Origin: Bacteroidota bacterium
Lineage (GTDB): Bacteria > Bacteroidota > Bacteroidia > AKYH767-A > OLB10
NCBI GenBank assembly: GCA_016721435.1
Contig: JADKIC010000002.1
Location: 193,212-257,211, forward strand
DNA: 64,000 nt
Reading direction: 5' to 3'
The notes beneath the pieces were generated by a model. It ran no database searches and was not told the DNA's origin. It saw only the letters and a list, made by a program, of their open reading frames with translations. Both the position numbers and the translations under genes were made by a program. The stretch's first letter is position 1. Every line of letters begins with the position of its first letter. Positions 17,501-49,262 of this stretch are shown in pieces.

Positions 17501-17563
17501 AGGCGTTAAAAGTTCTTTTTCATGCTATATGCAGGGTAATATTTTTCCTTTACCTTCGTCCCC

Positions 17564-18860: not shown

Positions 18861-18863
18861 TCC

Positions 18864-20699: not shown

Positions 20700-20733
20700 A
20701 AAGATACCTCATTGGTATTTTACTTCAATAAGT

Positions 20734-21394
20734 ATGAAAAAAAGAATTATTGCCTATTCCTCTGATCACGATTCACTGGGGAATTCTTTTCGAATGAAGC
20801 GGTTTAAGTTTTTGGCGGACAAGCTCGCGAAATTTCCTAAACCTGTAAATATTCTGGATGTAGGAGGAACCCTAAAGTATTGGGAAGCCAGAGGATTTCA
20901 GAATAATAATGATTTTATTATTACCATTATTAATCTTGAATCATCCGATTCGCCTTATACTAATATTAAAATATTAAAAGGAGATGCCACCAACCTCTCC
21001 AATTATAAAGACAAGTCCTTCGATCTGGCTTTCAGTAATTCAGTGATTGAGCATTTGACTGTTTTTGATAAGCAAGTATTGATGGCTAAAGGAAATGATA
21101 CGTACAGGTAAATATTATTTTGTACAAACGCCCAATCGCTACTTCCCGATAGAACCACATTTTCTTTTTCCGTTTTTTCAATTTCTTCCGTACTCTTTAA
21201 AATATTTTATCCTTACTAAAACAAAATTAAGTCGAGGCCGAAAACGCACTCCTCAACGCGCTGAGACTTACATTAAAGAGATTCGTCTCCTTACCACTAA
21301 AGAAATGTTGAAACTGTTTCCTGGATGTAAAGTGTACAATGAAAAAGTGGCCGGATTGATAAAATCAATAACTGTGCATAATTTGCCGGACTAA
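20734..21394 (+). CDS. Class I SAM-dependent methyltransferase (split by an apparent frameshift near 21095-21111)
   Basis: NILDVGGTLKYW (motif I) ... DLAFSNSVIEHL. The second ORF 21095-21394 continues in another frame. Confidence 0.5.
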
Positions 21395-33167: not shown

Positions 33168-34286
33168 TTGCCTAAAAAATTTAAATTGATGTTAAAGCAA
33201 TATATATTAATAGCCGGTCTGATCATGACCGGCTATTTTTCTCTCAACGCACAAAGTGGCCTGGAGAAAATTATTGTAGAAAAGTATTATATCTCTACAG
33301 CTAAAGATACAGTAGGAGCAGATTCAACAGGTTATTTACCAATAGGCTCTGTTACCTATCGGATTTTTACAGATTTACAACATGTATACAGGCTTCAGGC
33401 GGTATATGGAGTTCCGGAACATGAATTGAGAATTGAAACGACTACACGCTTTTTTAATTCTGCTATTGGTGATGGAAGGTCGGCCAATGATATTCAACCA
33501 TTGCTGTTAGTTAATGGCGCCCTTCTATTGGATAGTTGGGTTTCGGTTGGCGCAGCAACCGTTGATTATCTTGGAGTATTAAAAGCCGATGATGATTCGG
33601 TAAAAAGTTATGCAGCGAAAAATATTCAGGGTATTTTAAAAAACAGCGATCCTGAAGCAGGCATACCTTTATCAGAGAAGGATGGTATGAAATATTTACG
33701 TTATCAGCCGGCTACACAATATTATAATCTGGAGCATGATCTCAGGATTTTTGAATACCAGTACAAAGATTCAATGAAGGGTTTGTTTTCAACACGTGAT
33801 GGAGCCTGGGCAAGTTATGGTGGTTCTGTTGGTCCGCAACCGGAGAATCGTATACTTATTGCTCAACTTACTACTGATGGTGTATTGAGTTTTGAATTAA
33901 ATATGCAGTTGGCCGTTCCGAATGGTGGAGTTGAAAAGTTCGTTGCCAGGAATCCCGGAGAGGGAGAAGTTGAAATTTCTGAATTGAGGTATTCCAGCTC
34001 ACCTGACAATAAGGCTCCTGTCGTAACTTTGATAGGGCCGGATACGAAGAAGTTGACAAGCTCACAAACTATAGCCTTTACGGCCAATGCCAATGATCCT
34101 GATGGTAAAATTGTGGGGGTTGATTTTTACATCAATGATAAATTAGTGGCCACTGATACGGAATCGCCTTTTGTTTTTGACCATAAGTATGACGGAAAAG
34201 GTGCTAAAGTTTCAGCCACTGCAATAGATGCTTTGGGTGCAAAAACCAGATCAGAAGACATCTTTCTACCGGCGATGAAAATGTAA
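33168..34286 (+). CDS. Secreted protein, paralogue 2: shared N-terminal domain plus one C-terminal Ig-like domain. No T9SS C-terminal domain.
   Basis: GLEKIIVEKYYIS...GSVTYRIF...PEHELRIETTTRFFN...LLDSWVSVGAA...NRILIAQLTTDGVLSFELNMQL. C-terminal APVVTLIGPD...IVGVDFYINDKLV. Confidence 0.7.
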   Translation: MPKKFKLMLKQYILIAGLIMTGYFSLNAQSGLEKIIVEKYYISTAKDTVGADSTGYLPIGSVTYRIFTDLQHVYRLQAVYGVPEHELRIETTTRFFNSAIGDGRSANDIQPLLLVNGALLLDSWVSVGAATVDYLGVLKADDDSVKSYAAKNIQGILKNSDPEAGIPLSEKDGMKYLRYQPATQYYNLEHDLRIFEYQYKDSMKGLFSTRDGAWASYGGSVGPQPENRILIAQLTTDGVLSFELNMQLAVPNGGVEKFVARNPGEGEVEISELRYSSSPDNKAPVVTLIGPDTKKLTSSQTIAFTANANDPDGKIVGVDFYINDKLVATDTESPFVFDHKYDGKGAKVSATAIDALGAKTRSEDIFLPAMKM

Positions 34287-34497
34287 TAGGATTGAAAATT
34301 AGCTTTTCTGCAATGTTAGGAAAATGTTAATTCAGCCTTCAGGTCTTTTCAATAACGAATTGTTAATCCAAACATAACGTATATACAACCTCATTCCCAT
34401 CTCATTTATTCAATTTTGCCCTTCATGATTTTATATCATCAGAAGGAGTCTGTGATGAATATTATCTAATGTATCGTCTTAACTTAAAAATAGAAGT

Positions 34498-35586
34498 AAT
34501 GAGAAATTTAGTTTTAGTATTCGGCTTGCTTATTTGCAGTTGGAATCTGAATGCCCCAAAATGGTCTTGAAAATATTATTGTTGAAAATATTATATTTCA
34601 GACGGCAATGATACAATTGCAAATCTGGACGGTGGAGTTTTGCCGGTGGGTTCCGTTACCTATCGCGAGTATGTAGATATGTTGCCCGGTTATAAATTTC
34701 AGGTATGTTATGGTGTACCTACACATGAATTAAGAATTGAAACCACTACATTATTCTTTAATAATGAAGATCGCGGATCTACTTCTCCTAACTTCTCTTT
34801 TACAAACGCAGCCAAAAACACAGTGATGCTGGATTCCTGGTTGTCAGTAGGTGCTGCTTGTAACGGTTATATGGGAATTCTGAAAACGGATGATGATGGT
34901 GTTGGCAATATTGTTAATAATTATACGCCTCAGGTATTACAAAACGCAGATCCTGCTGCCGGTATTCCATTAACACAGCAGGATGGCTTAATCGCCGGTA
35001 CGCCGGAGGCATTTACTGAATTAGGAATTACAAATGAATTAGCCGTTTTTGATAATCAGAATGATGGAACAAATGGTCCTGTGTTTTCAACATTCAATGG
35101 ATCCTGGGTGGCGTTAAATGGTACTTATGGTCCTGATACAATCGAAAACAAAGTGCTGATTGCTCAAATTACTACAGATGGTACATTTTGTTTTCAAATG
35201 AATATTCAGTTGCGAACGCCTACTCCGGGCATTGTTGAGAATTATGTAGCGCTTAATCCAACAGGTACGGAGATTCTTTTTCCGGGATTGAACTATTGTT
35301 CTACTACCGGTAGTCCTGAATTTAAGTGGAAGAGCCTGCATTTAGCGTCTATCCCAATCCTTCATTTGATTTATTCAGCATGTGGATTTTTGCTTCCAGA
35401 CAAGTCGGTCATTATAGTTACAGAATTTGTTCTTTAGATGGAAAGCAGATGTTCAGTAAAGATTTGGGAATACAACAATTGGACTTAATGGAGAAAATTG
35501 ATTTATCCTCTTTTGCTCCCGGGGTTTATTTGATAGAACTTTCATTGAATGGTCAAAAGACTACTCGTCGGGTAGTAAAAAATTAA
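34498..35586 (+). CDS. T9SS-secreted protein, paralogue 3: shared N-terminal domain plus T9SS C-terminal domain. Three apparent homopolymer frameshifts (about 34552, 34590, 35330).
   Basis: MRNLVLVFGLLICSWNLNA then, after correction, QNGLENIIVEKYYIS...GSVTYREYVDMLPGYKFQ...HELRIETTTLFFNNEDRGST...MLDSWLSVGAA...NKVLIAQITTDGTFCFQMNIQL. C-terminal domain VYPNPSFDLF...GVYLIELSLNGQKTTRRVVKN. Confidence 0.65.
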
Positions 35587-35690
35587 TTGAAAGAAATATA
35601 AAATAGATCATATCGATTGTTAATTTATAAAGGACGACAGCTTATCCAAATAGTCCTTTCATCGAACGCTCCTCTCTATTCACTTAGATT

Positions 35691-38600
35691 ATGCAGAAAT
35701 TTATAGTGCTTGTGGTATTGCTATTATCCCTTGGTGAATCCTTTGGTCAGGGTATTGTTCGTGGAAAAGTGACAGATAAGAATGGTGAATCGCTTATTGG
35801 AGTGACGCTGGTTGTAAAGGGCAATACAGCTATAGGTGCAGCTACTGATCTGGATGGTAATTATAGTATTTCAGTGAAGGACAATGCGCCCTTCGTTTTA
35901 GTGGTATCCTATATTGGATTTAATACGCTTGAAGAATCCATTACACTTACCAACAATGCAGTAGTCATCAAGAATTTCACGATGCAATCATCATCTGTTG
36001 AGGTGAAGGAAGTGGAGATATCTGCTAAAGCAGTAAAAGCGGCCGATTATTATATGGAGAATATGAAGAAGCAATCCTCGACGACCATCGACTATGTTTC
36101 TTCTGAAACGATTCGGAAAACCGGTGATAATAGTGTGACTTCTGCCATTTCACGAGTGACCGGTGTTTCAAATACTTCAGCGGGTTTTATAACGGTAAGG
36201 GGTATAGGTGACCGTTATTTGAAGACATCAGTGAATGGTTCGGTGATTCCAACTTTGGATCCTTTTACAAATAATATTAAACTGGATTTTATTCCGGCGA
36301 ACCTGGTAGATAATATCATCATTACAAAAACAGCTTCCCCTGATTTACCCGGAAGTTGGGCAGGGGCCTATGTTTCTATCGAAACAAAGGACTATCCTGA
36401 ACAACTAACCGTCGCTGCAGAAACACAACTTGGCTACAATACGCAAAGTACCTTTCAAAATGTGTTGAGTGGGGAGAGAAGTAATACAGACTGGCTGGGT
36501 TTTGATGATGGTTTTCGGGATCGGACACATGGTGGATTTATTGATTATGTGGCAAGACCTACACAGTTTCAGGAAATGGTTGCACTTGGGTTGGGTAATT
36601 TTTATTTGGGTTTAGGAATTACTCAAAGTTGGGATCCTACCTCACAAGCCGGTATAGATCTGTTTAAATTGGGTCTGTAGAATTGGGCCTCTTAGCACCC
36701 GCATTGATTAATGATCAGGCAGCATTTAATCAGGCTTTGAGTACTTATCAAACAGGGATTAGCGCTGGATGCATTCAGTACAATTAATACACCTGCTTCA
36801 GAGCAGAATAAGAAATTCTCAAACACCTGGCTTATCGGTAAACGAAAGCACCGTTGAATTTTAGTCAGTCTTTTGGAATTGCGAATCAAATTAAGACCGG
36901 AAAGGAAAGTGCACTAGGATTTTTATTTGGATTGAGATATGGAAGCAATGTTCAATATGACAGTGATGCAAAATTGAACCGCTTTAGGTTAGAAGGAAAT
37001 ACTTTTTATTCTACACAGGAATTTACAAAGGAAACCAATAACTGGAGTGCCTTGATGAAACTTTCTTATAAGATTAATCCGAACCACAGTGTAGGTGTTT
37101 TATTTATGCCAAATGTGGGGGGCTCAAATAATCTAAGAACGATAGTCGGTACAGGTATTTTTGAAGATCAACCGGATGCTATTTATTATTCAAATGATCA
37201 GTTCTATGAAGAACGGCAACAATTGATTTATCAGGTAATGTCTGATCATTATCTGCCCTTTGCCAAGGCAAGAATTCATATGGATGCCTCTTATACCGAT
37301 GGTAGCAGTGATATTCCGGATTTTAGAAGTTTGAGTACCTTCTTGTTGAATGGTCAGTTGCTGAGTGGTCTTGGAAATTTGCCGAATACACGTGATTATC
37401 GTTATCTGGGTGAGAATTTGTTTGATTCCCGTTTGTCAATTGAAATTCCTCTGGCGGAAAAACCGGGTAAAAGCCGAAAGATAAAAGTGGGTGGTGCCTA
37501 CACTTATCTCGATCGTGAATTTAATCAGTTCGAATATATTTTAGGGGGAACGGATAGTAGTGGAAATATACTCACAGGTTCCTATCTGATACCGGATAAT
37601 AATATAGAAGCGTTTTTGAATCCTTCTAATTTCGGGGTGCAGTCATATGATTTTCAAGGATTGCCTAAGCGAAGATCCAATACAATTTATATTGAAAATG
37701 ATATTCCCGGGAACAGGACCATTGGCTATAGTGAAGTGATCGCTTATTATGCAATGATTGATTATAGTCTTTCTTATAAATGGCGCGCTTCCGGAGGCCT
37801 ACGTGTAGAACATGCCGACATCTTTGCGGATATTTATGAATACGATAGATTGGGATATGCGCCGGCGATATTCAGGAAAAGCGGAGGGAGATAATTTTCT
37901 GGCGAATCCCGGTATCATTAAAGTCACAAAATTACTTCCCAGTCTGAACATCGTTTATAAGTATCGTGATGATGAATCAAAGTCTATAAATGTTCGGGCA
38001 AACTATAGCCGTACAACAGCCTACCCAAGTATTCGTGAGATTACCGAGAATAATATTCTTGATTTTGAATTACGATCTACTGTCTTTGGTAATTCAACAT
38101 TGAAACCTGCTGATGTAGATAATTTCGACTTGCGTTGGGAAGGATACTTTAAAAATGCCAGTAGCATATCCGTAAGTGCTTTTTATAAGAAGTTTAAAAA
38201 CCATATTGAATTGTTGAATTTTAATGATGCGAACACCTGGACGAACGTAGATGACTCTTACGTGGTAGGATTGGAAGTAGAAGGGGTAAAGAAGCTTACA
38301 AAAAATTTGGAAATCCGGGCCAATGTTGCAGTTATAGAGTCAGAAACAAATGTGATTCTGAAAAGCCGAAAGGATGTAGATGGAGTCATCGTGCTCACTC
38401 CTTATGATACACTAGTCCGTTCTATGTATGGTCAAGCTCCCTTCATTGTAAATGCTATTATCAATTATAATTTTGAAAAAAGCAGAGTGAATGTCGCCGT
38501 TTCTTATAATATTCAAGGGAAGCGACTGGTGATTGCTGCCACTGAGAATGTGCCCGATGTTTATGAAATGCCAAGAAATGTTATTGATTTTAAAATATCA

Positions 38601-38759
38601 AAGCAGTTGGGAAAACACTTTACTACTTCACTTACTGTTAGAGATATATTAAATCAGCCCGTACAACGCAGGTTTGAAACGGAAACAGATGAGAAATTGG
38701 ATTACGATAGCTATCGCTGGGGAACAAGCATCAATTTAGGTTTAACGTATAAACTGTAA
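35691..38759 (+). CDS. TonB-dependent-receptor-like outer-membrane protein (N-terminal carboxypeptidase-regulatory-like domain, plug, 22-strand-barrel-like C-terminus). Two apparent frameshifts (about 36680-36854 and 37812-37894).
   Basis: IVRGKVTDKNGESLIGVTLVVKGNTAIGAATDLDGNYSI (CarbopepD_reg-like). ITVRGIGDRYLKTSVNGSVIP plug motifs. Three consecutive same-strand ORFs. C-terminus GLTYKL. Confidence 0.6.
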
Positions 38760-38772
38760 AATAAAAACGAAA

Positions 38773-40140
38773 ATGAATAGAAAGAAGCAGAGTGTTGACT
38801 CACTAGTGATAACACTGGTTTTTCTGTTTGTGAGCACCTTTTCGGCAATTGCGCAGATAAAGGGACTTTCAGTGGAAACATATTATATCTCAGATGTAAA
38901 TGATATCACAGATAATACAGGTGGCAGGAGCTTATCATTGGGATCGAAAACATATAGAATTTATGTAGAGTTAGAGGCCGGAAGTAAAGTTCGTAAGATT
39001 TATGGTGATTCATTGCATCCATTATCAATTATGAGTGACTCCGTTTTTTACAATAACAATGATCGTCCATCCAATGAATTTGGATATGAAATACAAGCAT
39101 CCTGGTACGAAGATAATCCTACACTCGCATTGGATAGCTGGTTGACTTTGGGACTTGCTTCTAAAACGCATAAAGGAATTTTGAAGTCTAAGGATAATGA
39201 TGGTGATATTGTTGCAGGTAGCAATAATTTGGGTGGTACAGCTGCTATCCCCGGTGGACTTTTGGTGAATAATGATCCTCTGATGGGATTGCCACTCACC
39301 ACTGCCGATGGACTCGTGCCGAACACCATCGTAAAGGGTACCTGGATAGATGTTGGCTTTAAGGATGGATTTGGAAATGATACCACCATCTTTGGTGCCG
39401 ACAGTATTGGAAATGAATTCAAGTGTTATGGTTGTGCATTGCAGCAAACGTTGGGTGTGGAAGGCCCGAATCAGGATAGCTCAAGAGTTTTAGTAGCTCA
39501 ATTGACAACCACCGGCGAATTGAAATTTGAGTTGAATTTAACTCTTGAACAAACCGATATCAATGGAAATACGGTGCTGGTAGATTATGTAGCCACTGAC
39601 GATACCCTTCGTCCCGGTGAAGTTGTGAGTCCTTTTCTTTCGTATCCTCTGGCATGTGGATGTAATGATCCCATGTATTTGGAGTATAGTGGTTCTTACA
39701 CTTGTCTGGAAGAAGATTCTTGTAAAACGCTGATCGTTTTTGGATGTATGGATACAATGGCCTGTAACTATAATCCGAACGCTAATTTTAATATTAGTAG
39801 CCTTTGTTGCTACCCGGGTTACTGCAATGATCTTGATATTTCGTTAGTATGTCCAACATTAAATCTGGGCCGATTCGCTTCGTCTAACGTTTTGGTCTAT
39901 CCGAATCCAAGCATTGGACCACTTACCGTTGAATTGTATGCGGATAAAAAGCAGCAAGCAACCCTTGAAGTGTATAATGCCATGGGTGAATTAGTTTATG
40001 CAGATCGTATTGCTTTAAGTGATAAAGTGACCCTCTCCGATCATGACATTACCTTTTTGCAAGAAGGTGTGTATCTGGTAAGAGTAACCGGAGATCAATT
40101 GAATGAAAGTATTCGTATTGTAAAGAGAAATAATAATTAA
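38773..40140 (+). CDS. T9SS-secreted protein, paralogue 4: divergent copy of the shared N-terminal domain, Cys-rich middle region and T9SS C-terminal domain
   Basis: GLSVETYYIS...GSKTYRIYVELEAG...LALDSWLTLGLA...GILKSKDNDGD...VNNDPLMGLPLTTADGL...RVLVAQLTTTGELKFELNLTL. C-terminal domain VYPNPSIGPLTVEL...GVYLVRVTG. Confidence 0.7.
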   Translation: MNRKKQSVDSLVITLVFLFVSTFSAIAQIKGLSVETYYISDVNDITDNTGGRSLSLGSKTYRIYVELEAGSKVRKIYGDSLHPLSIMSDSVFYNNNDRPSNEFGYEIQASWYEDNPTLALDSWLTLGLASKTHKGILKSKDNDGDIVAGSNNLGGTAAIPGGLLVNNDPLMGLPLTTADGLVPNTIVKGTWIDVGFKDGFGNDTTIFGADSIGNEFKCYGCALQQTLGVEGPNQDSSRVLVAQLTTTGELKFELNLTLEQTDINGNTVLVDYVATDDTLRPGEVVSPFLSYPLACGCNDPMYLEYSGSYTCLEEDSCKTLIVFGCMDTMACNYNPNANFNISSLCCYPGYCNDLDISLVCPTLNLGRFASSNVLVYPNPSIGPLTVELYADKKQQATLEVYNAMGELVYADRIALSDKVTLSDHDITFLQEGVYLVRVTGDQLNESIRIVKRNNN

Positions 40141-40151
40141 TAGCAGCTATC

Positions 40152-40910
40152 ATGAATAATTCAATTCAATTCTTTCGAAACAATTCATCATTGCGATTTC
40201 TGTTGTTTTTCCTGCTCTACTTTGTTTTAGGATTAAGTGCTTGTAAGGACGATGACGAAACGACGCCAATGCTGGAGACAGGAACCATGATTGATGTAGA
40301 TGGGAATATTTACAAAACAGTGTTGATTGGTGGTAAGTGGTGGATGGCCGAGAATTTGAGAGTAAAACATTATCGTGACGGTCAGGCTGTGAATGAATTA
40401 GTAGAAGATACCACCTGGAGTCAGGGTGCTGCGGCTTATTCTGTTCATCCGGATGCGACCACAGCGATGGGATATCTTTACAATTGGGAAGCCGTTTCCA
40501 ATACAGCCGGTCTGGCTCCTGACGGATGGCATATTGCTACCGATGAGGAATGGAAGCAATTGGAAAGTGCAGTGGGTATGGAATCATCAGAAATTGTAAA
40601 GACAGGATGGAGAGGTTCCATTGAAGGCGATGCTTTAAAAGCAGAAGGAACGGATAACTGGAACAGATTTGATCCCGTATGGGCAACGAACAGCAGTGGC
40701 TTTACTGCATTATCTGGATCGTGTCGTCTATACAATGGGAAATTTGGATATCCCGGCCGCTTATATACCGGATTTTGGTGGACCGCCTCAGAAAATATAG
40801 CTGATAATTCAAAAGCCTGGTACCGCTATCTGGATTATAAGACATCAGAAGTATTCAGACAGTATCTTCAGAAAGAATATGGAATGAGTGTGCGTTGCGT
40901 CAAAGATTAG
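40152..40910 (+). CDS. FISUMP-domain lipoprotein (Fibrobacter succinogenes major paralogous domain, TIGR02145-like)
   Basis: Lipobox LGLSACKDD. GGKWWMAENLR, GYLYNW, GWHIATDEEW, GFWWTASE, SVRCVKD are the hallmark FISUMP motifs. Confidence 0.75.
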   Translation: MNNSIQFFRNNSSLRFLLFFLLYFVLGLSACKDDDETTPMLETGTMIDVDGNIYKTVLIGGKWWMAENLRVKHYRDGQAVNELVEDTTWSQGAAAYSVHPDATTAMGYLYNWEAVSNTAGLAPDGWHIATDEEWKQLESAVGMESSEIVKTGWRGSIEGDALKAEGTDNWNRFDPVWATNSSGFTALSGSCRLYNGKFGYPGRLYTGFWWTASENIADNSKAWYRYLDYKTSEVFRQYLQKEYGMSVRCVKD

Positions 40911-41340: not shown

Positions 41341-42951
41341 ATGAAAAAACTAATTGCAAAATTTGCTGTTGCTGCCGGGATGGTAGTTGCAGCCGGTACT
41401 ACGGGTTCTGCTCAAAACAACTTAGGTGCTGATTGCGGATGTCCACAAGTTTCCAGCCGTCCAACTAAGAACTTCAGTGCTTATGTTGATGTAAACGGAA
41501 ACCTGCTTGCGAATCTCTATCTGTATTGCGACACCACCTACATCCTTAACGACAAAGTTTGGGTAGGTGCCGGTAAGACGATCACTATCGCTCCCGGAAC
41601 TGTTATTAAAGGAACACCAACCGGTATCGGTGTTCAACAAAATTCTCTTGTTATCATGCGCGGTGGTAAAATCAATGCTGCAGGTACTACTACCTGTCCG
41701 ATTGTATTTACTTCAACAAATGATCCTGTAAATGGTACTTATCCAATCGGCAATCGTGCAGAGTGGGGTGGAATTCAGGTATTGGGTAACGCGCAATTGG
41801 CTCGTTTAGGTGGTGTAGCTATTGCCGGTGGTGGAACAACTGCTAACGGTGAGTGGTTAATGGAAGGTTTGAATGCTGATGCCCGTTCAATATTTGGCGG
41901 AGGATCAAATCCAAACAACAATGACGACTCTGGTGTACTTCGTTATGTATCTATTCGTCATGCAGGTGGTGCAACCGCAGCAAACGTAGAGTTGAACGGT
42001 TTATCACTTGGTGCTGTAGGTAGCGGAACTATTATTGAAAACATCGAAGTCCTTTCAAACGACGATGATGCTGTTGAGTGGTGGGGTGGTACTGTAAACT
42101 GTAAGTATCTTAACTTCATGTTCCTGAATGATGACGGTTATGATATTGACATGGATTATGATGGAAAATTACAATTCCTGTTTGGTGTGAAAGCTCCTGC
42201 TGCTGTTGCTCCGGGTGGTGAAAGTGGTTTCGAGTGGGATGGTGATGAAGGTGCTTCTACCTGGTTTGGTGGTTACACTTCTGCTGTTTCTACTATGAAG
42301 TCTCATCCAGTTGTTTACAATGCAACTATCCTTGGTAATGGTTCTAATACCGGTGCGGGTGGTACTGGTACTACTCCTGGAAATCCATTCGGCATTAGCT
42401 TCAAATCAGATGCTGAAGGTGAAATCTACAATTCTATCTTCACCGGTTTCCGTGGTGGTATGAATTTACAAAGTACTTCAGATTCTTCTTACACAAACTG
42501 GGTGAACAACTTAGTAAAAGTTCAATGTAACCATTGGGTAGGATGTACTTTCCCTGCTTCTAACCAAAACGTTCCTTTCGTTGCAGGTGGTGCTGACTCC
42601 ACTAAATTCTTTGGTGATAACAACGTAAACACGAACAGCATTGCAGGTTTTGATTATTTGTTCAACATCAACGGATCAACTAACGTTGTTTCTGACAACA
42701 TCGATGTAGTTCCAAACAGCAATCTTTCAACAACTTGTTCAGCTCCTAATGATGGTTTCTTCACACCTGCTAACTATCGCGGTGCATTTGAAGCAGGTAA
42801 AAAGCCTTGGTTAAACAAGTGGGCTTACACTTCTGTAATCAATGTTATTCCGGGCTTATCTCCATGTCCTACTGACCTGAATTCAGATGGTCAAACCAAC
42901 ACTTCTGACTTCTTGTTGTTCGTTGCTCAATTCAACCTTTCTTGTAACTAA
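41341..42951 (+). CDS. Secreted Gly/Asn-rich protein (beta-helix-like repeats) ending in a single dockerin-like Ca-binding segment
   Basis: Signal peptide. C-terminal DLNSDGQTNTSDFLLFVAQF matches the dockerin loop pattern D.N.DG...N..D...L. A TACATTTG -7 box lies at about 41272-41279. Confidence 0.55.
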   Translation: MKKLIAKFAVAAGMVVAAGTTGSAQNNLGADCGCPQVSSRPTKNFSAYVDVNGNLLANLYLYCDTTYILNDKVWVGAGKTITIAPGTVIKGTPTGIGVQQNSLVIMRGGKINAAGTTTCPIVFTSTNDPVNGTYPIGNRAEWGGIQVLGNAQLARLGGVAIAGGGTTANGEWLMEGLNADARSIFGGGSNPNNNDDSGVLRYVSIRHAGGATAANVELNGLSLGAVGSGTIIENIEVLSNDDDAVEWWGGTVNCKYLNFMFLNDDGYDIDMDYDGKLQFLFGVKAPAAVAPGGESGFEWDGDEGASTWFGGYTSAVSTMKSHPVVYNATILGNGSNTGAGGTGTTPGNPFGISFKSDAEGEIYNSIFTGFRGGMNLQSTSDSSYTNWVNNLVKVQCNHWVGCTFPASNQNVPFVAGGADSTKFFGDNNVNTNSIAGFDYLFNINGSTNVVSDNIDVVPNSNLSTTCSAPNDGFFTPANYRGAFEAGKKPWLNKWAYTSVINVIPGLSPCPTDLNSDGQTNTSDFLLFVAQFNLSCN

Positions 42952-42987
42952 AATTAAAGAAAAAAAACAGCTCACAGCTACAAAATT

Positions 42988-45900
42988 ATGAAACTAAATA
43001 AACTATTAACAGGAGCACTCCTCTTGTTAACGGGAACCTTTGCGCATGCCCAGAACGGTCTGGAGAACATAATCATAGAGAAGTACTACGTATCAAAGGC
43101 TGCTGATGCTGCTAACGCCAACACTGCATTGTCAGGAGCCGGTTATACAACAGGTACATTACCTTCGGGTTCTGTTACCTGGCGTGTGTACGCTGATCTG
43201 CTCCCGGGTTGGGGAGTTCAGTCAGTGTATGGTGTACCAAGTCATCCATTGGTGCTGACTTCTTCAACATCATTCTTTAATCATCCGAATGCGAATACTA
43301 CAGGTGGAAACTTCTCCAGCAACAGTAACAGTATCCTCGGCGACGGAACTACACTTCTAGACTCTTATCTGTCTTGCGGTGCTGTAGCTCCTGCACGTTT
43401 CGGTGTATTGAAAGCCGAAGATAATTCTGCTGCAGTTCCTGCAGGTGGTGGTATTAACCAGGTGATTACTCCCGGTACAGTATTGGCCAACAACGATCCA
43501 AGTGCAGCTCCTGCGCTTACCGTTGCTGATGGTCACTATAACGTTGGTGGATCTCCGGCATTACTTGCTCTTACTCTATTAGGTGATGCAGCTGCTGCTC
43601 CGGTAAATATTTTTACCGATGGTTCAACAGTTGGTAATAACTACAATAGTACAAATACTTCATGGGGAGTATTGGGTGAGCAGGTAGGAGCTTTCCCTAC
43701 AGGTACTAACCGTGTATTGATTGGACAATTTACTTCTGATGGTGTATTCCATTATGAGTTGAATATCCAAATCCGTAACAACACTACCTTTGCTGTGCAA
43801 AACTATGTGAATGCTAACCCAACCGGTGCCGAGATTTTATTAACCGCTCTTGCCGGTACATTGAATCAGCCAAATGCTGCTCCAAGTGTTAACATTACAG
43901 CTCCTGCAAATGGTGCCAGTTTCTTTGTGGGTGATAACGTGAACATCACTGCTACTGCTTCTGACGTTGCTCCAGGTACTGTTACGCAGGTGGAATTCTT
44001 CGTAAACGGAGTTTCTGTAGGTGTGGACAATACAGATCCTTATGCAGCTACCTATGTGGCTACTTCAGGAACGAAGAACATCACTGCTGTAGCTACTGAT
44101 AACGGAGGTGCTACTACTACTTCTTCTATCGTTACCATTACTGTGGGTACAAACACTGCACCTTTAGTAAATATCACGGCTCCTGCTAATGGAACATTGT
44201 TCATTGGTGGAGCTGCTGTTCAGATTGATGCGAATGCATCTGATCCGGGTGGTGCTGTGGCTCAGGTGGAATTCTTTGTAAACGGAGTTTCTGTAGGTGT
44301 AGATAATACATCGCCTTACTCTGTTTCCTGGACAAGTGGTGCTCCTTTCGGAACACGTTTATTGACTGCTGTGGCTACAGATAACTTCGGTTCATCAACT
44401 ACTTCTGCTACAGTTTCTATCACTGTTCAAAATCCTTCAGCTCTTCCTTACACTATCGGAAATCTTACAGAAAAATGTGTAAACAGCAATTTCTGTCTTC
44501 CTATCACTGCTGTTGATACCGTTGCGGATATCATCGGTTATGATATCGTTCTCGACTATGATGTAACTAAAGTTGCTCCAACAGGAGCAATTGTACGTAG
44601 CAATGATTTACTGCTTCCTTCTTTCAACTACAACATGGTGAGCACTGCTTACTCTAATGATGCTACAAATGGTAAATTGCGTATCGCAGTTTATTTCAAC
44701 GGTAGCGCTCCTTCATCTGCTCGTTTTGCCGGATCAGGAGATATCATTTGTGTTGAATTTGCTAAGACAGGTCTTGGTAACACAGATACAGCTTTATTCG
44801 TAGCAGATACTTTAATGGAAAGCCGCATTACCGGAGTTCAATTGAAGGCTACTGATGCTGGAAGCTATGCAACGTATAAAGACAGTCTCTTCAGCAGCAA
44901 TTTGAAATTCTGGGAAGATTTCAGTCCTATCCGTTACAATGCAGCTGCACCTGCTGATTATTTGATCACTAATATTTATGGAAACAATACCAGCTGTAAC
45001 AACCGTTCAGTTGCTGCTGTTCAACCAGATCTAAATGGTGAGTTTACATACAATGTGAACAATGGTGCTAAGATTGAAATCATCAAGGATATCGCTCCGG
45101 CAACGGATATGCAACCTGTAGTGAATGGATTTGACGCCTTCCTTACACGTCGTGTGTTGATCAATGATGCAAGTTTCGTTCCTTCTGTTTATCAGATGAT
45201 CGCTATGGATGTGAATACAGATGGTGTTGTTTCTGCAGGTGACTTGTCACAGATTAACCAACGTGCTGTATTATTCATTCCTGAATTCCAACAGGATTGG
45301 AACTACAATGCTCAGGGTGTATCTAATGGTCAGCCTTCAAGAGACTGGTTGTTCATTGATGTAAATACTGTAAGTGCTAGCCCTTCTTATTACATATCTA
45401 CTAACTATCCTTCTAATGATGGAATTGGTTATAGCAAGAATAAAGTTCCACAAGTTGATTTCTGTAGCCCAATCCCTGTTAGTTTTATTAATGGTGATTG
45501 TCCTGTAATCGGAACTGAATCTTATATCGGTGTATTGTTAGGTGATGCTAACGGAAATTACTCTTCTAACAATGGTGCTCCAAGTCCATTTAAAGTGGGA
45601 AGCTCTGAGAAAGTAATTTTTGATGCTACAAAAGCAGTAGTTGCTGATGGTTTCGTTACGATTCCTGTTGCTGTTAAATCATTCAATACTGTAAATGCAA
45701 TCGATTTCGCTTTCCAGTTCAATGCAGGCAACCTTACTTTCGATAACGTGACAGACCTTACCGGTAAAATGATGGTTCTTTCTCATTTCAATACTGCGGA
45801 TCAAACTGTTCGTTTCACTTCGAATAGCTTGGAAAGCATTGAAAAGAATGTAACTGTTTTAAATGTGCGTTTCGCTATCAATAGCACTAATTTCAACCCT

Positions 45901-46218
45901 GCTGACTTGAATTCACTTTCAGGTTATATCAACGGTGAAAGCGCTGAAGTTGAAGTAAGAACGGAGCGTATCGCTGCAACGGATGTGAACGTAAGTGTTT
46001 ATCCAAATCCGGTAAACAATATGTTGAATGTGTTTGTATCTGAGAATGCTCAAATCGAACTTTCTGATTTAAGTGGCCGTGTGATCATGACTGTAAACAA
46101 TGTACTTGCTGATCAAAAGCAGGAACTTAATGTTGCGGGTATTGCAGACGGTGTTTATATGCTGAAAGTTTGGAACGGTGAGTTTGTTTCAACAAGCAAA
46201 GTGGTAGTAAAGCATTAA
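42988..46218 (+). CDS. Large (1076 aa) T9SS-secreted scaffold-like protein, paralogue 5: shared N-terminal domain, two Big-like Ig domains, two cohesin-like domains, a dockerin-like segment and a T9SS C-terminal domain
   Basis: GLENIIIEKYYVS...GSVTWRVYADLLPGW...VLIGQFTSDGVFHYELNIQI. Ig repeats APSVNITAPANG...VEFFVNGVSVGVDNT (x2). Cohesin-like CLPITAVDTVADIIGYDIVLDYDVTKV...NGKLRIAVYFNGS...GDIICVEFAKTG, and a second copy at KVIFDATKAVVADGFVTIPVAVKSFNTVNAIDFAFQFNAGNLTFDNV. DVNTDGVVSAGDLSQINQ dockerin-like loop. C-terminal domain VYPNPVNNMLNVFV...GVYMLKVWNGEFVSTSKVVVKH. Confidence 0.75.
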   Translation: MKLNKLLTGALLLLTGTFAHAQNGLENIIIEKYYVSKAADAANANTALSGAGYTTGTLPSGSVTWRVYADLLPGWGVQSVYGVPSHPLVLTSSTSFFNHPNANTTGGNFSSNSNSILGDGTTLLDSYLSCGAVAPARFGVLKAEDNSAAVPAGGGINQVITPGTVLANNDPSAAPALTVADGHYNVGGSPALLALTLLGDAAAAPVNIFTDGSTVGNNYNSTNTSWGVLGEQVGAFPTGTNRVLIGQFTSDGVFHYELNIQIRNNTTFAVQNYVNANPTGAEILLTALAGTLNQPNAAPSVNITAPANGASFFVGDNVNITATASDVAPGTVTQVEFFVNGVSVGVDNTDPYAATYVATSGTKNITAVATDNGGATTTSSIVTITVGTNTAPLVNITAPANGTLFIGGAAVQIDANASDPGGAVAQVEFFVNGVSVGVDNTSPYSVSWTSGAPFGTRLLTAVATDNFGSSTTSATVSITVQNPSALPYTIGNLTEKCVNSNFCLPITAVDTVADIIGYDIVLDYDVTKVAPTGAIVRSNDLLLPSFNYNMVSTAYSNDATNGKLRIAVYFNGSAPSSARFAGSGDIICVEFAKTGLGNTDTALFVADTLMESRITGVQLKATDAGSYATYKDSLFSSNLKFWEDFSPIRYNAAAPADYLITNIYGNNTSCNNRSVAAVQPDLNGEFTYNVNNGAKIEIIKDIAPATDMQPVVNGFDAFLTRRVLINDASFVPSVYQMIAMDVNTDGVVSAGDLSQINQRAVLFIPEFQQDWNYNAQGVSNGQPSRDWLFIDVNTVSASPSYYISTNYPSNDGIGYSKNKVPQVDFCSPIPVSFINGDCPVIGTESYIGVLLGDANGNYSSNNGAPSPFKVGSSEKVIFDATKAVVADGFVTIPVAVKSFNTVNAIDFAFQFNAGNLTFDNVTDLTGKMMVLSHFNTADQTVRFTSNSLESIEKNVTVLNVRFAINSTNFNPADLNSLSGYINGESAEVEVRTERIAATDVNVSVYPNPVNNMLNVFVSENAQIELSDLSGRVIMTVNNVLADQKQELNVAGIADGVYMLKVWNGEFVSTSKVVVKH

Positions 46219-46242
46219 TATTTGATTAGTATTATTTTGAAA

Positions 46243-46275
46243 GGGCTCCGGGGTTATTCGGAGCCCTTTTTTATT
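46243..46275 (+). terminator. Rho-independent terminator after the 1076-aa gene
   Basis: GGGCTCCGgggttattCGGAGCCC followed by TTTTTTATTTT, read directly. Confidence 0.7.
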
Positions 46276-46400
46276 TTCTAGAACTTTCTGGATTTATATT
46301 TTAACCATTTTTCGTATTGTTAATATTAGTTTAACATGACTATTTGATCAGAGCCTTACATTTGTTTCACACAATTGCCGCAATTGAAGATTTTACAAAA

Positions 46401-47009
46401 ATGATGAAGTGCCTGTTTACTTTTTTCGCAATTTGCTTACTGTCGGCCGGAGATGGATGGGCTAATGAAAAACTTACTTTTTCCAACCAAAGGGAAACAG
46501 TTTACGATGAGCTTTTCATGGAGGAAACGACGCGTGTAGGTTTGAATGTTGGTGGAGATTCAACGGATATAATATTATCGGGTGGTTTCGCAAATTTTGC
46601 CTATATAATTACGGAAGGTTCACTTTTTATTTGCCCCGGAGATACCATTACCCTCAGCGCCGGAGGAGGAACGGCCGGATCTACTTATCTATGGACAACA
46701 GGCGCAACAACATCTTCTATTCAGGTTTCAGCTACCGGAGTCTATGGCTTGAAAATTACGACCTGTAAAGGAAAAGGGAAGGGTGGAAAATGTACATCTG
46801 TTGCTGTGCCGGTTGCAATAACCGTCAGTAGCCTCATTTCCGATTTGAATAATGATGGTAATGTGGATGTTTTGGATTACATCATCTTCCTCGGAGTGTT
46901 TAATAGCCCTTGCCCTGCATGTGCGGAAGACTTTATTGCAGATGGATTAATAGATACCAGGGATTATTTGCGATGGGTATCGGATATTTTTAAGACTTGT
47001 AATAATTGA
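46401..47009 (+). CDS. Small secreted protein with Ig-like middle region and a C-terminal double dockerin-like module
   Basis: Signal peptide MMKCLFTFFAICLLSAG. C-terminus DLNNDGNVDVLDYIIFLGVF - 9-aa linker - DFIADGLIDTRDYLRWVSDIF gives two Ca-binding loop plus helix segments in the dockerin arrangement. Confidence 0.6.
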   Translation: MMKCLFTFFAICLLSAGDGWANEKLTFSNQRETVYDELFMEETTRVGLNVGGDSTDIILSGGFANFAYIITEGSLFICPGDTITLSAGGGTAGSTYLWTTGATTSSIQVSATGVYGLKITTCKGKGKGGKCTSVAVPVAITVSSLISDLNNDGNVDVLDYIIFLGVFNSPCPACAEDFIADGLIDTRDYLRWVSDIFKTCNN

Positions 47010-47140
47010 TTTTTGCAGAAAATTTAATTTTCAGAGGTTAATGACTTATCCTTAACAATTTTCTCATTTAGAAGTAATTTCAGCATAATATTATTGCCAG
47101 ACTGAAGCTATATATTTGCTAACTAATCCCCTCCCCAATC

Positions 47141-47890
47141 ATGTCTAAAATTATACTATCAAATCTATTCTTGTTTTTTGCTGCAATGATTCATTGTCAA
47201 GCGAAACAAAGCAACATATTCCCCACTCCTGATGTAGTTACCATCGATGCCGGTGATTCAGTCATTTTTGATATGTTTAACGCCACATATTCCGGATCAC
47301 AGGTTACTATTCCGGTATATATCAATTCAGATGACCCTATCTATGCGGTTGACTTTTCCTTTAAGTTTAATAACCTGGATATGGTGTATGATACGATTAC
47401 TTTATCCCCGGCTGGATCTACATTGCTCGCCGTTTCCTATTTGAATCCTAATGATTCCGTGGTACGTTTTACCTCCAGTTCGCTGGTGAGTATTGCTAAT
47501 CAAACGGTATTGGTATATATTCATTTTAATTTGGCATCCGGCCAAACATTAGATGCAGCAGATATGTTTACTTTGAAAGGATATTTAAATGGCGATCCTT
47601 GTAGTGAGGCCATAATTCCTCCGTCTACGGTTGGATTAAGTGATTTTGCATCAAATTGGAATTTGTCCATCTTCCCAAATCCCGCTACCGATTTCCTTTT
47701 TGTGGAAATGAATCAGAATGCCGTTCTTGAAGTGATGGATGTACAGGGTAAGGATGTGTTGCTAAAACAATCTTTAAATGCAGGAATCAAAAATCAGGTG
47801 AACATTGAGTTTCTTCCTATCGGTTTCTATCTGTTACGCATTTATAACGAAGAAGGTGTCAGCGTAAAGAAGGTGTTTGTTGCGAAGTAA
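47141..47890 (+). CDS. Cohesin-like domain protein with T9SS C-terminal sorting domain
   Basis: VVTIDAGDSVIFDMFNATYSGSQVTIPVYINSDDPIYAVDFSFKFNNLDMVYDTITL resembles the second cohesin-like domain of the 1076-aa protein. C-terminal domain IFPNPATDFLFVEM...GFYLLRIYNEEGVSVKKVFVAK. Confidence 0.65.
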   Translation: MSKIILSNLFLFFAAMIHCQAKQSNIFPTPDVVTIDAGDSVIFDMFNATYSGSQVTIPVYINSDDPIYAVDFSFKFNNLDMVYDTITLSPAGSTLLAVSYLNPNDSVVRFTSSSLVSIANQTVLVYIHFNLASGQTLDAADMFTLKGYLNGDPCSEAIIPPSTVGLSDFASNWNLSIFPNPATDFLFVEMNQNAVLEVMDVQGKDVLLKQSLNAGIKNQVNIEFLPIGFYLLRIYNEEGVSVKKVFVAK

Positions 47891-48143
47891 ATTTCGTTAT
47901 GAATATAGTTTTGGGAAAGAAGATAGTTTATCATAATTGTTTTCATAACATGGACAATGACCGCCGATGGGTTGTGCATGAGATTTTATTTTCTATAAGA
48001 ATCCGGAGGTCTTGTGCTTCAAGTGCTTTCATGAATCATTTACTTAAAGGGATATTTAAGGAAAGCGGGAAGTCAAAAAATGTCATGATTCTTATCATTG
48101 CTAAGCCATGTGGTGTGCTTAACTTTGCATAACTCTTGTCTAA

Positions 48144-49262
48144 TTGTCAAGGAAAGTCATGTTGAAAATTTTGTTCGTCTTTTTACTGGTTGTTCATGGT
48201 TTGATTCATGGAATGGGCTTTGTAAAAGCCTTCGATTGGTTTCCTATTACCACCCTTCACCGTAATATTGGAAAATTTGAGGGAGTTGTTTGGATGTTAA
48301 CTGCGCTTTTGTTTATAGCAGCCGGTATAGTGTACTTCATCGACATCAAATACTGGCTGATTATCGGAGTGATTGCTCTTATTTTATCACAACTATTGAT
48401 TGTTATAAATTGGAATGAGGCTAAATTCGGAACGATCCTGAATGTATTGGTGTTGGTCATGTTGGTGCTTCAGTATAGTGCCGCGAGTTTCAAGTCCGGG
48501 TTTATTGAAGATGTAAAGAGAGAACTTGCTGCCGGCGCGAATGAAGTTGTAAAGAAAAATTCTATCCATGATCTTCAGCATTTACCATATCCCGTTCAAC
48601 AATATATGATCCAATCCGGTTTTTTAGAACAGGAGGAGATTCGTAATTTTAGAGTGGAGTTTAAAGGGAGAATCAGGGCTTCAGCAACGTCGGAGTGGAT
48701 GGAATTTACAACCGTTCAGTATAGTTTTACAGAGCATCCTGCCCGCTACTTTTTTATGGAGGCGAAGATGTACGGACTCCCGGTAGCAGGGTACCATGCT
48801 TATCATAACGGTAAAGCCATGATGGATATTCGATTGCTTTCGTTGCTGAAGGTACAATATCAGGATGGTGAATTGATGGATGTTTCAGAAACAGTGACTT
48901 TTTTTAATGATGTATGTTTGATGGCCCCGGCTGCTTTAGTCGACGGTCGCATAAAATGGAAAAGTACCTCAAACAATGAAGTGGATGCAGAGTTTACGAA
49001 TGGAAAAAGTAGTATTTCAGCCAGACTTATATTTGCAGAGGATTTTAAATTGATAAATTTTATTACCAACGACAGGTATTTTCTTTCAGACAAAGAACTG
49101 AAGAAGGTACAATGGGAAACACCTGTTAGAACTTACAATAAAGCGAAACGATTTTTACAAATGGAAAGGGGTGATGCTGTATGGAAATTGCAAGAGGGAG
49201 ATTTTTGTTATGGTGAATTTACAGTAATGGATATCAAATATAATGTGAGTAGTATGGAATAA
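48144..49262 (+). CDS. Hypothetical protein: N-terminal 4-TM region plus soluble C-terminal domain of unknown function
   Basis: 372-aa ORF. Hydrophobic helices in the first roughly 110 aa. No recognisable motif. Confidence 0.4.
   Translation: MSRKVMLKILFVFLLVVHGLIHGMGFVKAFDWFPITTLHRNIGKFEGVVWMLTALLFIAAGIVYFIDIKYWLIIGVIALILSQLLIVINWNEAKFGTILNVLVLVMLVLQYSAASFKSGFIEDVKRELAAGANEVVKKNSIHDLQHLPYPVQQYMIQSGFLEQEEIRNFRVEFKGRIRASATSEWMEFTTVQYSFTEHPARYFFMEAKMYGLPVAGYHAYHNGKAMMDIRLLSLLKVQYQDGELMDVSETVTFFNDVCLMAPAALVDGRIKWKSTSNNEVDAEFTNGKSSISARLIFAEDFKLINFITNDRYFLSDKELKKVQWETPVRTYNKAKRFLQMERGDAVWKLQEGDFCYGEFTVMDIKYNVSSME

Follow-up and report, generated by a model that had tools for sequence, protein, structure and literature searches.

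The window (the entire 64,000-nucleotide stretch of Bacteroidota DNA that was analyzed) contains four neighboring genes, which encode a 536-aa beta-helix protein, a large 1076-aa multidomain protein, a 202-aa protein and a 249-aa protein (Table 1). All four ORFs were confirmed by translation, and the peptides singled out in an earlier note on this DNA (CLPITAVDTVADIIGYDIVLDYDVTKV, NGKLRIAVYFNGS, GDIICVEFAKTG, KVIFDATKAVVADGFVTIPVAVKSFNTVNAIDFAFQFNAGNLTFDNV, DLNNDGNVDVLDYIIFLGVF plus NSPCPACAE plus DFIADGLIDTRDYLRWVSDIF, DLNSDGQTNTSDFLLFVAQF, and DVNTDGVVSAGDLSQINQ) are found in their translations. The four genes form the 3′ half of a conserved ~14-kb cluster in uncultured Bacteroidota. The cluster begins with type IX secretion system (T9SS) proteins, a TonB-dependent receptor, a further T9SS protein and a FISUMP lipoprotein, and it ends with the beta-helix protein, the large protein (cohesin, dockerin-like, cohesin and C-terminal sorting domain [CTD]) and, usually, a small cohesin-CTD protein. 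No relevant prior description of this cluster was found in the literature.

Table 1. Positions of the cluster genes and their modules in the window
Feature	Position	Strand	Description
Strong terminator	33209-33237		Just 5′ of the cluster; terminator scan
Two ~360-aa T9SS-cargo genes	33168..35588	+	Open the cluster; second fragmented by 1-bp indels
TonB-dependent receptor	35691..38759	+	CarboxypepD_reg, Plug and barrel; three ORFs through 1-bp indels
455-aa T9SS cargo	38773..40140	+	Por_Secre_tail, 38.7 bits
FISUMP (Fib_succ_major) lipoprotein	40152..40910	+	PF09603, E = 1.9e-44; lipobox LSAC, then KDDDE
536-aa beta-helix protein	41341..42951	+	Pfam Beta_helix_4; SPI signal peptide
Half-dockerin tail	42865..42945	+	CPTDLNSDGQTNTSDFLLFVAQFNLSC; aa 509-535; one Ca loop and helix, two bracketing Cys; extreme C terminus
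1076-aa T9SS cargo	42988..46218	+	Signal peptide, N-domain (aa 22-290), two Big_7 (aa 295-482; Pfam), cohesin 1, middle domain with internal dockerin, cohesin 2, CTD
Cohesin module 1	44440..44910	+	aa 485-641
Internal dockerin-like module	45100..45282	+	aa 705-765; three helices
Cohesin module 2	45589..45978	+	aa 868-997
T9SS type A CTD of 1076-aa protein	45997..46212	+	Por_Secre_tail, 48.1 bits; TIGR04183, 46.5 bits
Strong intrinsic terminator	46239..46270	+	14-bp stem and T-run; closes the cluster transcription unit
202-aa protein	46401..47009	+	SPI-type signal peptide, one Ig-like domain, tandem dockerin-like tail
Tandem dockerin (GC type)	46842..47000	+	DLNNDGNVDVLDYIIFLGVF - NSPCPACAE - DFIADGLIDTRDYLRWVSDIFKTC; two segments, 9-aa CxxC linker
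249-aa protein	47141..47890	+	Signal peptide; cohesin aa 36-161 (nt 47246-47623); T9SS CTD aa 177-247 (nt 47669-47881)

Conservation of the cluster

Homologues of the 1076-aa protein number >2000, and its relatives occur in 528 species-level genomes, the best 80 of which are all MAGs of uncultured freshwater, sludge, and soil Bacteroidota. The TonB-dependent receptor is found in every locus with sufficient upstream sequence, the FISUMP lipoprotein gene is syntenic in all loci, and synteny of the two ~360-aa genes (orthologues L001:196-1293, with Big_7, and L001:1507-2595, with Por_Secre_tail) extends to most of 89 loci. The earlier note had placed the FISUMP lipoprotein and a GH1 beta-glucosidase nearby; the former is a syntenic cluster member, and the latter lies on the opposite strand. 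The beta-helix gene lies directly 5′ of the large gene in all 66 of the 66 loci in which both are complete (median gap, 42 nt). Downstream of the large gene, a cohesin-2-type ORF is present in 58/65 loci and a homologue of the 202-aa protein, at <4 kb, in 13/65, and the 202-aa gene is conserved beside a cohesin-CTD gene. No contig matched the 202-aa protein exactly, and its context was read from homologues instead. Twice in the window, a dockerin-like gene immediately precedes a cohesin gene, an order that is conserved.

Comparison with a 97.8% identical genome (L001) showed that 1-bp indels in the window split the receptor gene (1023 aa in L001) and fall at positions 34485, 34554, 34584, and 35323 in the region of the ~360-aa genes; the stretch from 41341 to 47858 is free of them. 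A sigma-70 promoter scan was disregarded as not meaningful for Bacteroidota, and only terminators were used. The N-terminal domain of the 455-aa T9SS cargo is homologous to that of the 1076-aa protein (29% identity, E = 5e-19, residues 57-264 of the latter).

Cohesin and dockerin-like modules

Cohesin sequence logic had been noted in two segments of the 1076-aa protein, and both hold up: the first is predicted to adopt the cohesin fold, and the second belongs to a family whose consensus passes Pfam Cohesin (PF00963; 24.8 bits versus a cutoff of 24.1 bits). Pfam scores for both are marginal, and a whole-protein scan reported no Cohesin match. The window sequence of module 1 scores 23.1 bits, and a sequence-profile search against PDB sequences gave no cohesin, only chance potassium-channel matches (E of about 0.2), so a fold search was needed. 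Foldseek of the whole-chain AF2 model (mean pLDDT 84, pTM 0.50) against the PDB was uninformative, being swamped by multi-Ig proteins (complement and macroglobulins), a problem solved by a domain-only model of module 1 (pLDDT 94.5), whose top 48 PDB fold matches are cohesins only. In this model, module 1 is an elongated beta-sandwich (jelly-roll) that superposes on solved cohesins. Module 2 has the cohesins 2xdh and NagJ as its top PDB profile matches (E = 0.045-0.35) and is related to the 249-aa protein (31% identity, E = 1e-31). Modules 1 and 2 have no significant relation to each other (hhalign probability 2.7%) and are therefore not recent duplicates. The third proposed cohesin, on the 249-aa protein, is above the Pfam cutoff (26.6 versus 24.1 bits). 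The family of this protein comprises 369 representative clusters; among 63 members, 36 have a Cohesin match (E <= 0.01, best 3e-8) and 62 have the CTD.

Dockerins are defined by two repeats; in type I, two tandem ~22-residue segments each comprise a 12-residue Ca loop (D1, N/D3, D5, G6, D12) followed by a helix. Window ORFs, which total 26,275 aa, contain three matches to the loop pattern D.[NDST].[DN]G.....[DNE], more than chance would give (0.27 +/- 0.55 expected from shuffles), and all lie in the 536-aa, 1076-aa, and 202-aa proteins, the three neighbors for which D.N.DG-type segments had been claimed. Across 89 related loci, the pattern is almost exclusive to orthologues of these three (78/86 beta-helix, 90/99 large-protein, and 15/17 small-protein ORFs versus 4/1761 unassigned ORFs). 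All dockerin-like segments of the window score below the curated thresholds (22.9 bits for Dockerin_1 [PF00404] and 29 bits for the GC-type dockerin NF041540), some relatives pass, and the sole Pfam match of each tail is Dockerin_1. Profile and fold searches, with PF00963 and PF00404 among the profiles, placed the segments in the families named in the earlier note, and not among unrelated beta-sandwich proteins or generic EF hands.

The 202-aa protein has both of the tandem segments ascribed to it. Its tail scores 21.1 bits for the GC-type dockerin and 15.6 bits for Dockerin_1 (11.2 in a whole-protein scan). The GC-type profile is matched by 11/16 members of its family with E <= 0.01, though at scores under the cutoff, and two positional equivalents exceed cutoffs (L038, Dockerin_1, 23.2 bits; L027, GC-type dockerin, 33.1 bits over positions 4-67 of 67). 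The first loop is canonical; the second lacks the position 3 ligand in the window clade (DFIADG) and is canonical in divergent equivalents. GC-type dockerins are likewise C-terminal tandem Ca-loop/helix segments with repeats punctuated by Cys; no published description of this family or of a binding partner was found.

The internal module of the 1076-aa protein, also claimed as dockerin type, scores 20.2 bits for Dockerin_1 in the window (below the cutoff), and the consensus of its family scores 23.6 bits; several homologues have a precomputed PF00404 annotation. Its first loop is degenerate and its second canonical (D741, N743, D745, G746, S749, and D752), with helices at 714-724, 734-740, and 750-760 in the AF2 model. 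The residues of loop 2 and its helix are invariant in 103 sequences. The middle domain that surrounds the module is highly conserved, and the module may have a structural role or an intrachain partner.

The dockerin claimed for the 536-aa protein survives in part: one Ca loop and helix are present, but as a single repeat, i.e., half a dockerin in place of two segments. The tail scores 14.7 bits for Dockerin_1 and 15.2 bits for the GC-type dockerin, and a profile of the tail family matches only dockerins in the PDB. It is C-terminal in 120/120 homologues among the matches listed, 109 of which have the strict loop pattern and 11 of which deviate from it by a substitution at a single loop position. 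Complete beta-helix ORFs number 77 in the loci: the Cys-bracketed tail is present in 68, a tail lacking both Cys in 7, and a T9SS CTD instead in 2, the last being one paralogue, in L003 and L004. The two Cys are lost together across homologues; in the lineages without them, no discriminating column marks a matching fixed change in the large protein, and so there is no coevolution signal, although six lineages give little power. Only about 10-15 residues separate the tail from the conserved body, an obvious Pro/Thr linker is lacking, and the tail thus could be a structural Ca site. Nothing relevant on single-repeat dockerins was found in the literature.

Sorting and export of the encoded proteins

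The T9SS C-terminal domains originally proposed for the cohesin proteins were borne out: the 1076-aa, 249-aa, and upstream 455-aa proteins have signal peptides and CTDs above curated cutoffs (PF18962/TIGR04183, 48.1/46.5, 45.4/42.4, and 38.7/43.6 bits, respectively). Sec signal peptides are also present on the tailed proteins (536 aa and 202 aa), but neither a lipobox nor a CTD was found in either, and on current knowledge they are therefore expected to stay in the periplasm, away from the exported cohesins. The description of them as secreted partners encoded beside the cohesins thus holds for the conserved adjacency but is overstated for secretion, as they have no known outer-membrane route. 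Lipoprotein anchoring was considered and rejected: the conserved Cys residues (mature N terminus of the 536-aa protein, NLGxxCGCP) lie ~8-10 residues past the signal-peptide hydrophobic core, outside a lipobox.

A speculative solution, to which we give long odds, is that the T9SS uses cohesin-dockerin pairing itself for export and anchoring. CTD-less proteins would bind the cohesins of CTD cargo in the periplasm, be carried along across the outer membrane by the folded-protein translocon and be tethered beside the TonB-dependent receptor. Nothing relevant on such hitchhiking was found in the T9SS literature. If true, hitchhiking through the T9SS would be a first, as would a single-repeat dockerin that functions (a 27-residue, disulfide-stapled half-dockerin), and the receptor and its accessories would form a new architecture that differs from SusC/SusD.

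A proposed receptor-centered surface complex and its alternatives

Genuine cohesin-fold modules and dockerin-like tails in a TonB-importer cluster suggest a plug-and-socket surface complex and not a cellulosome. We put the probability of a receptor-centered cell surface complex assembled by cohesin-dockerin-type docking at about one half. T9SS-exported cohesin proteins would be held at the cell surface, where their cohesins would capture the dockerin-like modules in a Ca-dependent manner. The beta-helix protein, which probably binds or processes ligand as a partner of the receptor, would be tethered beside the receptor and the FISUMP surface lipoprotein, as would the 202-aa protein, a small adaptor. 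Through its internal dockerin, the large protein would connect either to the small cohesin-CTD protein or to a second copy of itself. There is no specific pointer to cellulose as the substrate.

The folds may instead be real without pairing with one another, the cohesin sandwiches serving as spacers or as glycan- or ligand-binding modules and the Ca loops as structural sites that stabilize their own proteins extracellularly. The single repeat and short connection of the beta-helix tail, the position of the internal module within a conserved domain and the subthreshold dockerin scores in the window are all consistent with this, and Peer et al. reportedly noted in 2009 that most noncellulosomal cohesins and dockerins lack a demonstrated partner. 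Such a reading is possible but on the unlikely side: the placement of dockerin-like genes directly upstream of cohesin genes, seen twice, is conserved across deep divergence, there is no variation at the helix positions through which canonical dockerins touch cohesin, and the exchange of the tail for a T9SS CTD in a paralogue fits a role in localization better than one in stabilization.

Self-assembly is less probable still. The internal dockerin would bind a cohesin of the same or a neighboring copy, or the small cohesin-CTD protein, and form a rigid clasp or polymeric lattice in which the beta-helix tail is not involved. All relatives examined have two cohesins and one dockerin per polypeptide (86 ORFs with both cohesin HMM matches), the internal-loop motif is present in 77/78 ORFs, and three near-universal cohesins face two near-universal dockerin-like modules. 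Self-assembly, however, leaves the near-universal, extremely conserved beta-helix tail and the tandem tail of the 202-aa protein unexplained, and the pTM of the full-length model (only 0.50) allows no confident assessment of interdomain packing.

It seems quite improbable that outer-membrane machinery reads the Cys-bracketed tail as a signal for sorting or export, in which case the tail would be a new kind of C-terminal secretion tag rather than a ligand of cohesins. Its near-universal conservation at the extreme C terminus, the CTD at the equivalent place in the paralogue and the lack of another export determinant in the tailed proteins fit such a tag, as does the NCBI name of the related domain, “GC-type dockerin domain-anchored.” Nevertheless, what the tail specifically resembles is dockerin repeats, the cohesins encoded alongside would have no ligand, and ~27 residues is far smaller than any T9SS CTD known to us.

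The cellulosome-like complex of the earlier note, read as a multienzyme assembly for plant cell wall breakdown, is rejected as extremely improbable despite the cohesin and dockerin modules and a nearby GH1 gene that is syntenic in the window clade, because no GH, PL, CE, or CBM domain was matched on any dockerin-bearing protein in Pfam and NCBIfam profiles, the GH1 protein (MKEDFYWG start) is encoded on the opposite strand without a signal peptide or dockerin, and the cluster centers on a TonB-dependent receptor. Cellulosomes have dockerins on carbohydrate-active enzymes and a multicohesin scaffoldin, usually with a CBM, whereas the dockerin bearers here are a beta-helix protein and a small Ig-like protein.

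The cluster also differs from known systems. Clostridial cellulosomes (Clostridium thermocellum CipA/OlpA and Clostridium acetobutylicum CaCohA2-CaDoc0917) use type I cohesin-dockerin pairs; here, the host is Gram negative, anchoring is by T9SS and not by SLH or sortase, no enzyme was found to bear a dockerin, and proteins have at most two cohesins. In addition, one partner has a single repeat, repeats are Cys bracketed, there is coupling to a TonB-dependent receptor, and sequence scores are at or below family thresholds. Noncellulosomal cohesins (Archaeoglobus fulgidus 2xdh and the Clostridium perfringens NagJ/NanJ toxin-complex cohesins 2o4e, 2jh2, 2w1n, and 2vo8) come from Firmicutes or Archaea, without a T9SS or TonB context and with two-repeat dockerins. 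SusC/SusD-type polysaccharide utilization loci share a TonB-dependent receptor with N-terminal CarboxypepD_reg and surface-exposed accessories, including a lipoprotein. Unlike those loci, the cluster has no SusD homologue and no recognizable CAZymes, and its accessories are T9SS cargo and cohesin- or dockerin-bearing proteins rather than Sus-type lipoproteins.

Cohesin-dockerin assembly is commonly seen as a Gram-positive, cellulosome-centered device. Its components are described as absent or rare in Bacteroidota (PMC5831590, PMC6487960). The cluster places cohesin-fold and dockerin-like modules within a tightly conserved T9SS and TonB-dependent receptor context. If the modules do not pair, it remains a large uncharacterized receptor system worth annotating. 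If they do, the surface arrival of CTD-less proteins in T9SS organisms becomes directly testable, the ~27-residue tail would be a minimal disulfide-stapled docking tag of potential use in protein engineering, and the cluster would represent a new way of building surface nutrient uptake complexes in Bacteroidota.

Gene order and integrity of the cluster

Homologues of the 1076-aa large protein and of the 536-aa beta-helix protein are numerous (>2000 each) and nearly all lack a protein name. With each species represented by one genome, relatives of the large protein occur in 528 genomes, the best 80 of which are all Bacteroidota metagenome-assembled genomes (MAGs). Gene order is near-constant over 89 loci: one or two T9SS proteins of ~360 aa are followed by a TonB-dependent receptor, a T9SS protein of ~450 aa, a FISUMP (Fib_succ_major) lipoprotein, the beta-helix protein and the large protein. 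Wherever both genes are complete (66 loci), the beta-helix gene is the immediate 5' neighbour of the large gene, at a median distance of 42 nt. A cohesin-2-type ORF, mostly of 240-280 aa, lies ≤4 kb downstream in 58/65 loci, and a homologue of the small Ig-like 202-aa protein is present in 13/65, always directly before a cohesin-2-type gene. In the window, two strong intrinsic terminators flank the core cluster, and the 202-aa/249-aa gene pair lies outside the unit that they bound. A literature search found no paper describing this cluster.

Features of the cluster and its flanks in the window
Feature	Position	Remark
Strong intrinsic terminator	33209-33237	one flank of core cluster
TonB-dependent receptor gene, fragments	35691-36680, 36854-37894, 37812-38759	1023-aa receptor broken by indels
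455-aa T9SS protein	38773-40140	
FISUMP lipoprotein	40152-40910	
536-aa protein ORF	41341-42951	
1076-aa protein ORF	42988-46218	
Strong intrinsic terminator	46239-46270	other flank of core cluster
202-aa protein ORF	46401-47009	221 aa if started at upstream TTG
249-aa protein ORF	47141-47890	
DUF6544/DUF6920 membrane protein	48144-49262	between cohesin-CTD and GH1 genes

The four ORFs to which the earlier note assigned cohesin-like or dockerin-like modules lie at the coordinates given, and their translations contain all peptides quoted from them. The comparison genome, L001 (GCA_963852085.1), is a MAG contig 97.8% identical to the window, with many scattered 1-bp indels between the two in regions 34485-38759 and 47859-48158. 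The indels that split the receptor gene and cut short the second of the ~360-aa T9SS genes in the window look like long-read assembly errors rather than real pseudogenes. There are no indels across 41341-47858. A single indel at 47859 leaves the T9SS C-terminal domain (CTD) complete in the window and truncated in L001, which is apparently wrong at this position, as the window version yields a complete CTD.

The 455-aa T9SS protein and the large protein have a common N-terminal domain (29% identity, E = 5e-19), for which a Pfam search matched no family; the 455-aa protein also carries a Cys-rich stretch (CGCNDP...CCYPGYC) ahead of its CTD. The FISUMP lipobox (LGLSAC) is followed by KDDDE, similar to the Bacteroidota surface-lipoprotein export signal, so this protein would be surface exposed beside the receptor. 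Between the cohesin-CTD and GH1 genes, the DUF6544/DUF6920 gene is found in the window and L001 and in none of the other loci inspected. On one metagenome contig (L005, 7989-15487), the block encoding the tandem-dockerin protein, the cohesin/CTD protein and GH1 is tandemly duplicated, with an extra 342-aa cohesin-CTD gene between the copies. Some cluster-bearing contigs have odd public titles, e.g., L011 (CALQEU020000018.1), a 'Bifidobacterium breve' MAG, as well as L037, L058 and L065, and the title 'Chitinophaga pinensis' is given to several MAGs; mislabelling or bin contamination is the probable cause.

Cohesin and dockerin-like modules

The 249-aa protein has both the cohesin-like domain and the T9SS tail ascribed to it, with a Pfam Cohesin match of 26.6 bits (cutoff 24.1) and a Pfam CTD. 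Its family (369 representative clusters at 50% identity) consists of a signal peptide, cohesin and CTD in about 245 aa, and sampled members match Cohesin in 36/63 cases (best E = 3e-8) and the CTD in 62/63. Residues 865-1074 of the large protein are homologous to it (31% identity, E = 1e-31), and the family consensus of this second module reaches 24.8 bits for Cohesin, also above 24.1. Against the PDB, the module 2 profile aligns best, albeit weakly, with cohesins from outside cellulosomes, A. fulgidus 2xdh and C. perfringens NagJ (E = 0.045-0.35). Profile and fold checks, which might have contradicted the earlier note, place the putative cohesin segments in the cohesin family and not in unrelated beta-sandwich families.

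Three matches to the Ca-loop pattern D.[NDST].[DN]G.....[DNE] were found among the 26,275 aa encoded by window ORFs (shuffle expectation 0.27 ± 0.55), all in the mutually adjacent 536-, 1076- and 202-aa proteins. Across the 89 loci it is nearly exclusive to these families: 78/86 beta-helix, 90/99 large-protein and 15/17 small-protein ORFs carry it, as do 4/1761 unassigned, 0/71 FISUMP and 0/64 T9SS-455 ORFs. Dockerin_1 was the sole Pfam family recovered with each of the three segments, which belong with dockerins and not generic EF-hand families; their fit is unequal. For the internal module of the large protein (aa 705-765), the window sequence scores 20.2 bits, below the cutoff of 22.9, and the family consensus 23.6; several homologues have a precomputed PF00404 match. 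Three helices are predicted in the structure model (714-724, 734-740 and 750-760). Among 103 sequences, loop 2 (D741, N743, D745, G746, S749 and D752) and the helix after it (S754, Q755, N757, Q758 and R759) are invariant or nearly so, and loop 1 is degenerate. At the C-terminus of the 202-aa protein, a CxxC linker connects two loop-helix segments; the window sequence scores only 15.6 bits with Dockerin_1 and, against a cutoff of 29, 21.1 with NCBIfam dockerin_GC, a profile that matches 11/16 family members. Positional equivalents in divergent genomes, in which both Ca loops are canonical, reach the curated cutoffs (Dockerin_1 23.2 in L038; dockerin_GC 33.1 over the full profile in L027).

Two conserved pairs, each a dockerin-like gene followed by a cohesin gene, make physical pairing of the products the most economical reading of the gene arrangement. 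That the folds are real but unpaired, with cohesins as spacers or binders and loops as structural Ca sites, appears rather unlikely. Self-assembly of the large protein through its own internal dockerin, which lies between its cohesins, is more doubtful still.

The half-dockerin tail of the beta-helix protein

The extreme C-terminus of the 536-aa protein is one segment, CPTD.N.DG.TN..DFL.LLG.FNQSC. It agrees with the dockerin-type Ca loop and helix proposed for this protein; with a single repeat where dockerins are defined by two, it is half a dockerin. The tail is found in 120/120 homologues among the matches listed, 109 with the strict loop pattern and 11 with one loop position substituted. 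The 538-position family profile retrieves only dockerins from the PDB (2y3n_B, E = 0.025; CaDoc0917, E = 0.35-0.66), each aligned to the tail as one repeat. Among 77 complete beta-helix ORFs in related loci, 68 have a Cys-bracketed tail and 7 a tail from which both cysteines are gone; the joint loss, with the N-terminal CGC motif kept in 5/7, fits a disulfide within the tail. A near-invariant NLGxxCGCPxVxSRPT directly follows the signal-peptide cleavage site in this family (window 41341-41460).

In the remaining 2/77 ORFs, one paralogue found in both L003 and L004, a T9SS CTD (26.4 bits) stands exactly in place of the tail, which suggests that the tail is a localisation device and that the two are alternatives. 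This 606-aa paralogue directly follows a second TonB-dependent receptor, of 930 aa (16695-21345), a minimal module suggesting that receptor and beta-helix protein are the functional core. A role as a new sorting tag is very unlikely for the tail.

Assembly and location

The modules match type I cohesin-dockerin pairs in fold and loop chemistry, the sequence profiles put them closest to the non-cellulosomal cohesins of A. fulgidus and C. perfringens, and the tandem tail belongs with the GC-type dockerin of NCBIfam, for which a literature search found no publication. Unlike known systems, the cluster has a Gram-negative host, T9SS anchoring, a TonB-dependent receptor without SusD, no dockerin-borne enzymes, Cys-bracketed repeats and one single-repeat tail. 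Published work (PMC5831590, PMC6487960) regards cohesins and dockerins as either missing from Bacteroidota or rare there. The observation in the earlier note is confirmed and its interpretation partly supported: the proposed cellulosome-like complex fails, and a true cellulosome is scarcely credible, because a recognisable carbohydrate-active enzyme domain occurs in none of the dockerin-bearing proteins, GH1 lacks a signal peptide and dockerin and is encoded on the opposite strand, and the hub is a TonB-dependent receptor.

The tailed 536-aa and 202-aa proteins have Sec (SPI) signal peptides and neither a lipobox nor a CTD; on present understanding, both would stay in the periplasm. Because the T9SS translocates proteins in the folded state (PMC9251779), a tailed protein could conceivably, if improbably, be exported in complex with a cohesin; a literature search for such co-export found no precedent.

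The module identities, synteny and conservation of the cluster are established, and its best explanation, with a probability of about 0.5, is a receptor-centred surface complex put together by cohesin-dockerin-type docking. The cohesin modules would bind the dockerin-like modules, the complex would be retained at the surface, and the beta-helix protein may be the ligand-handling partner of the TonB-dependent receptor.
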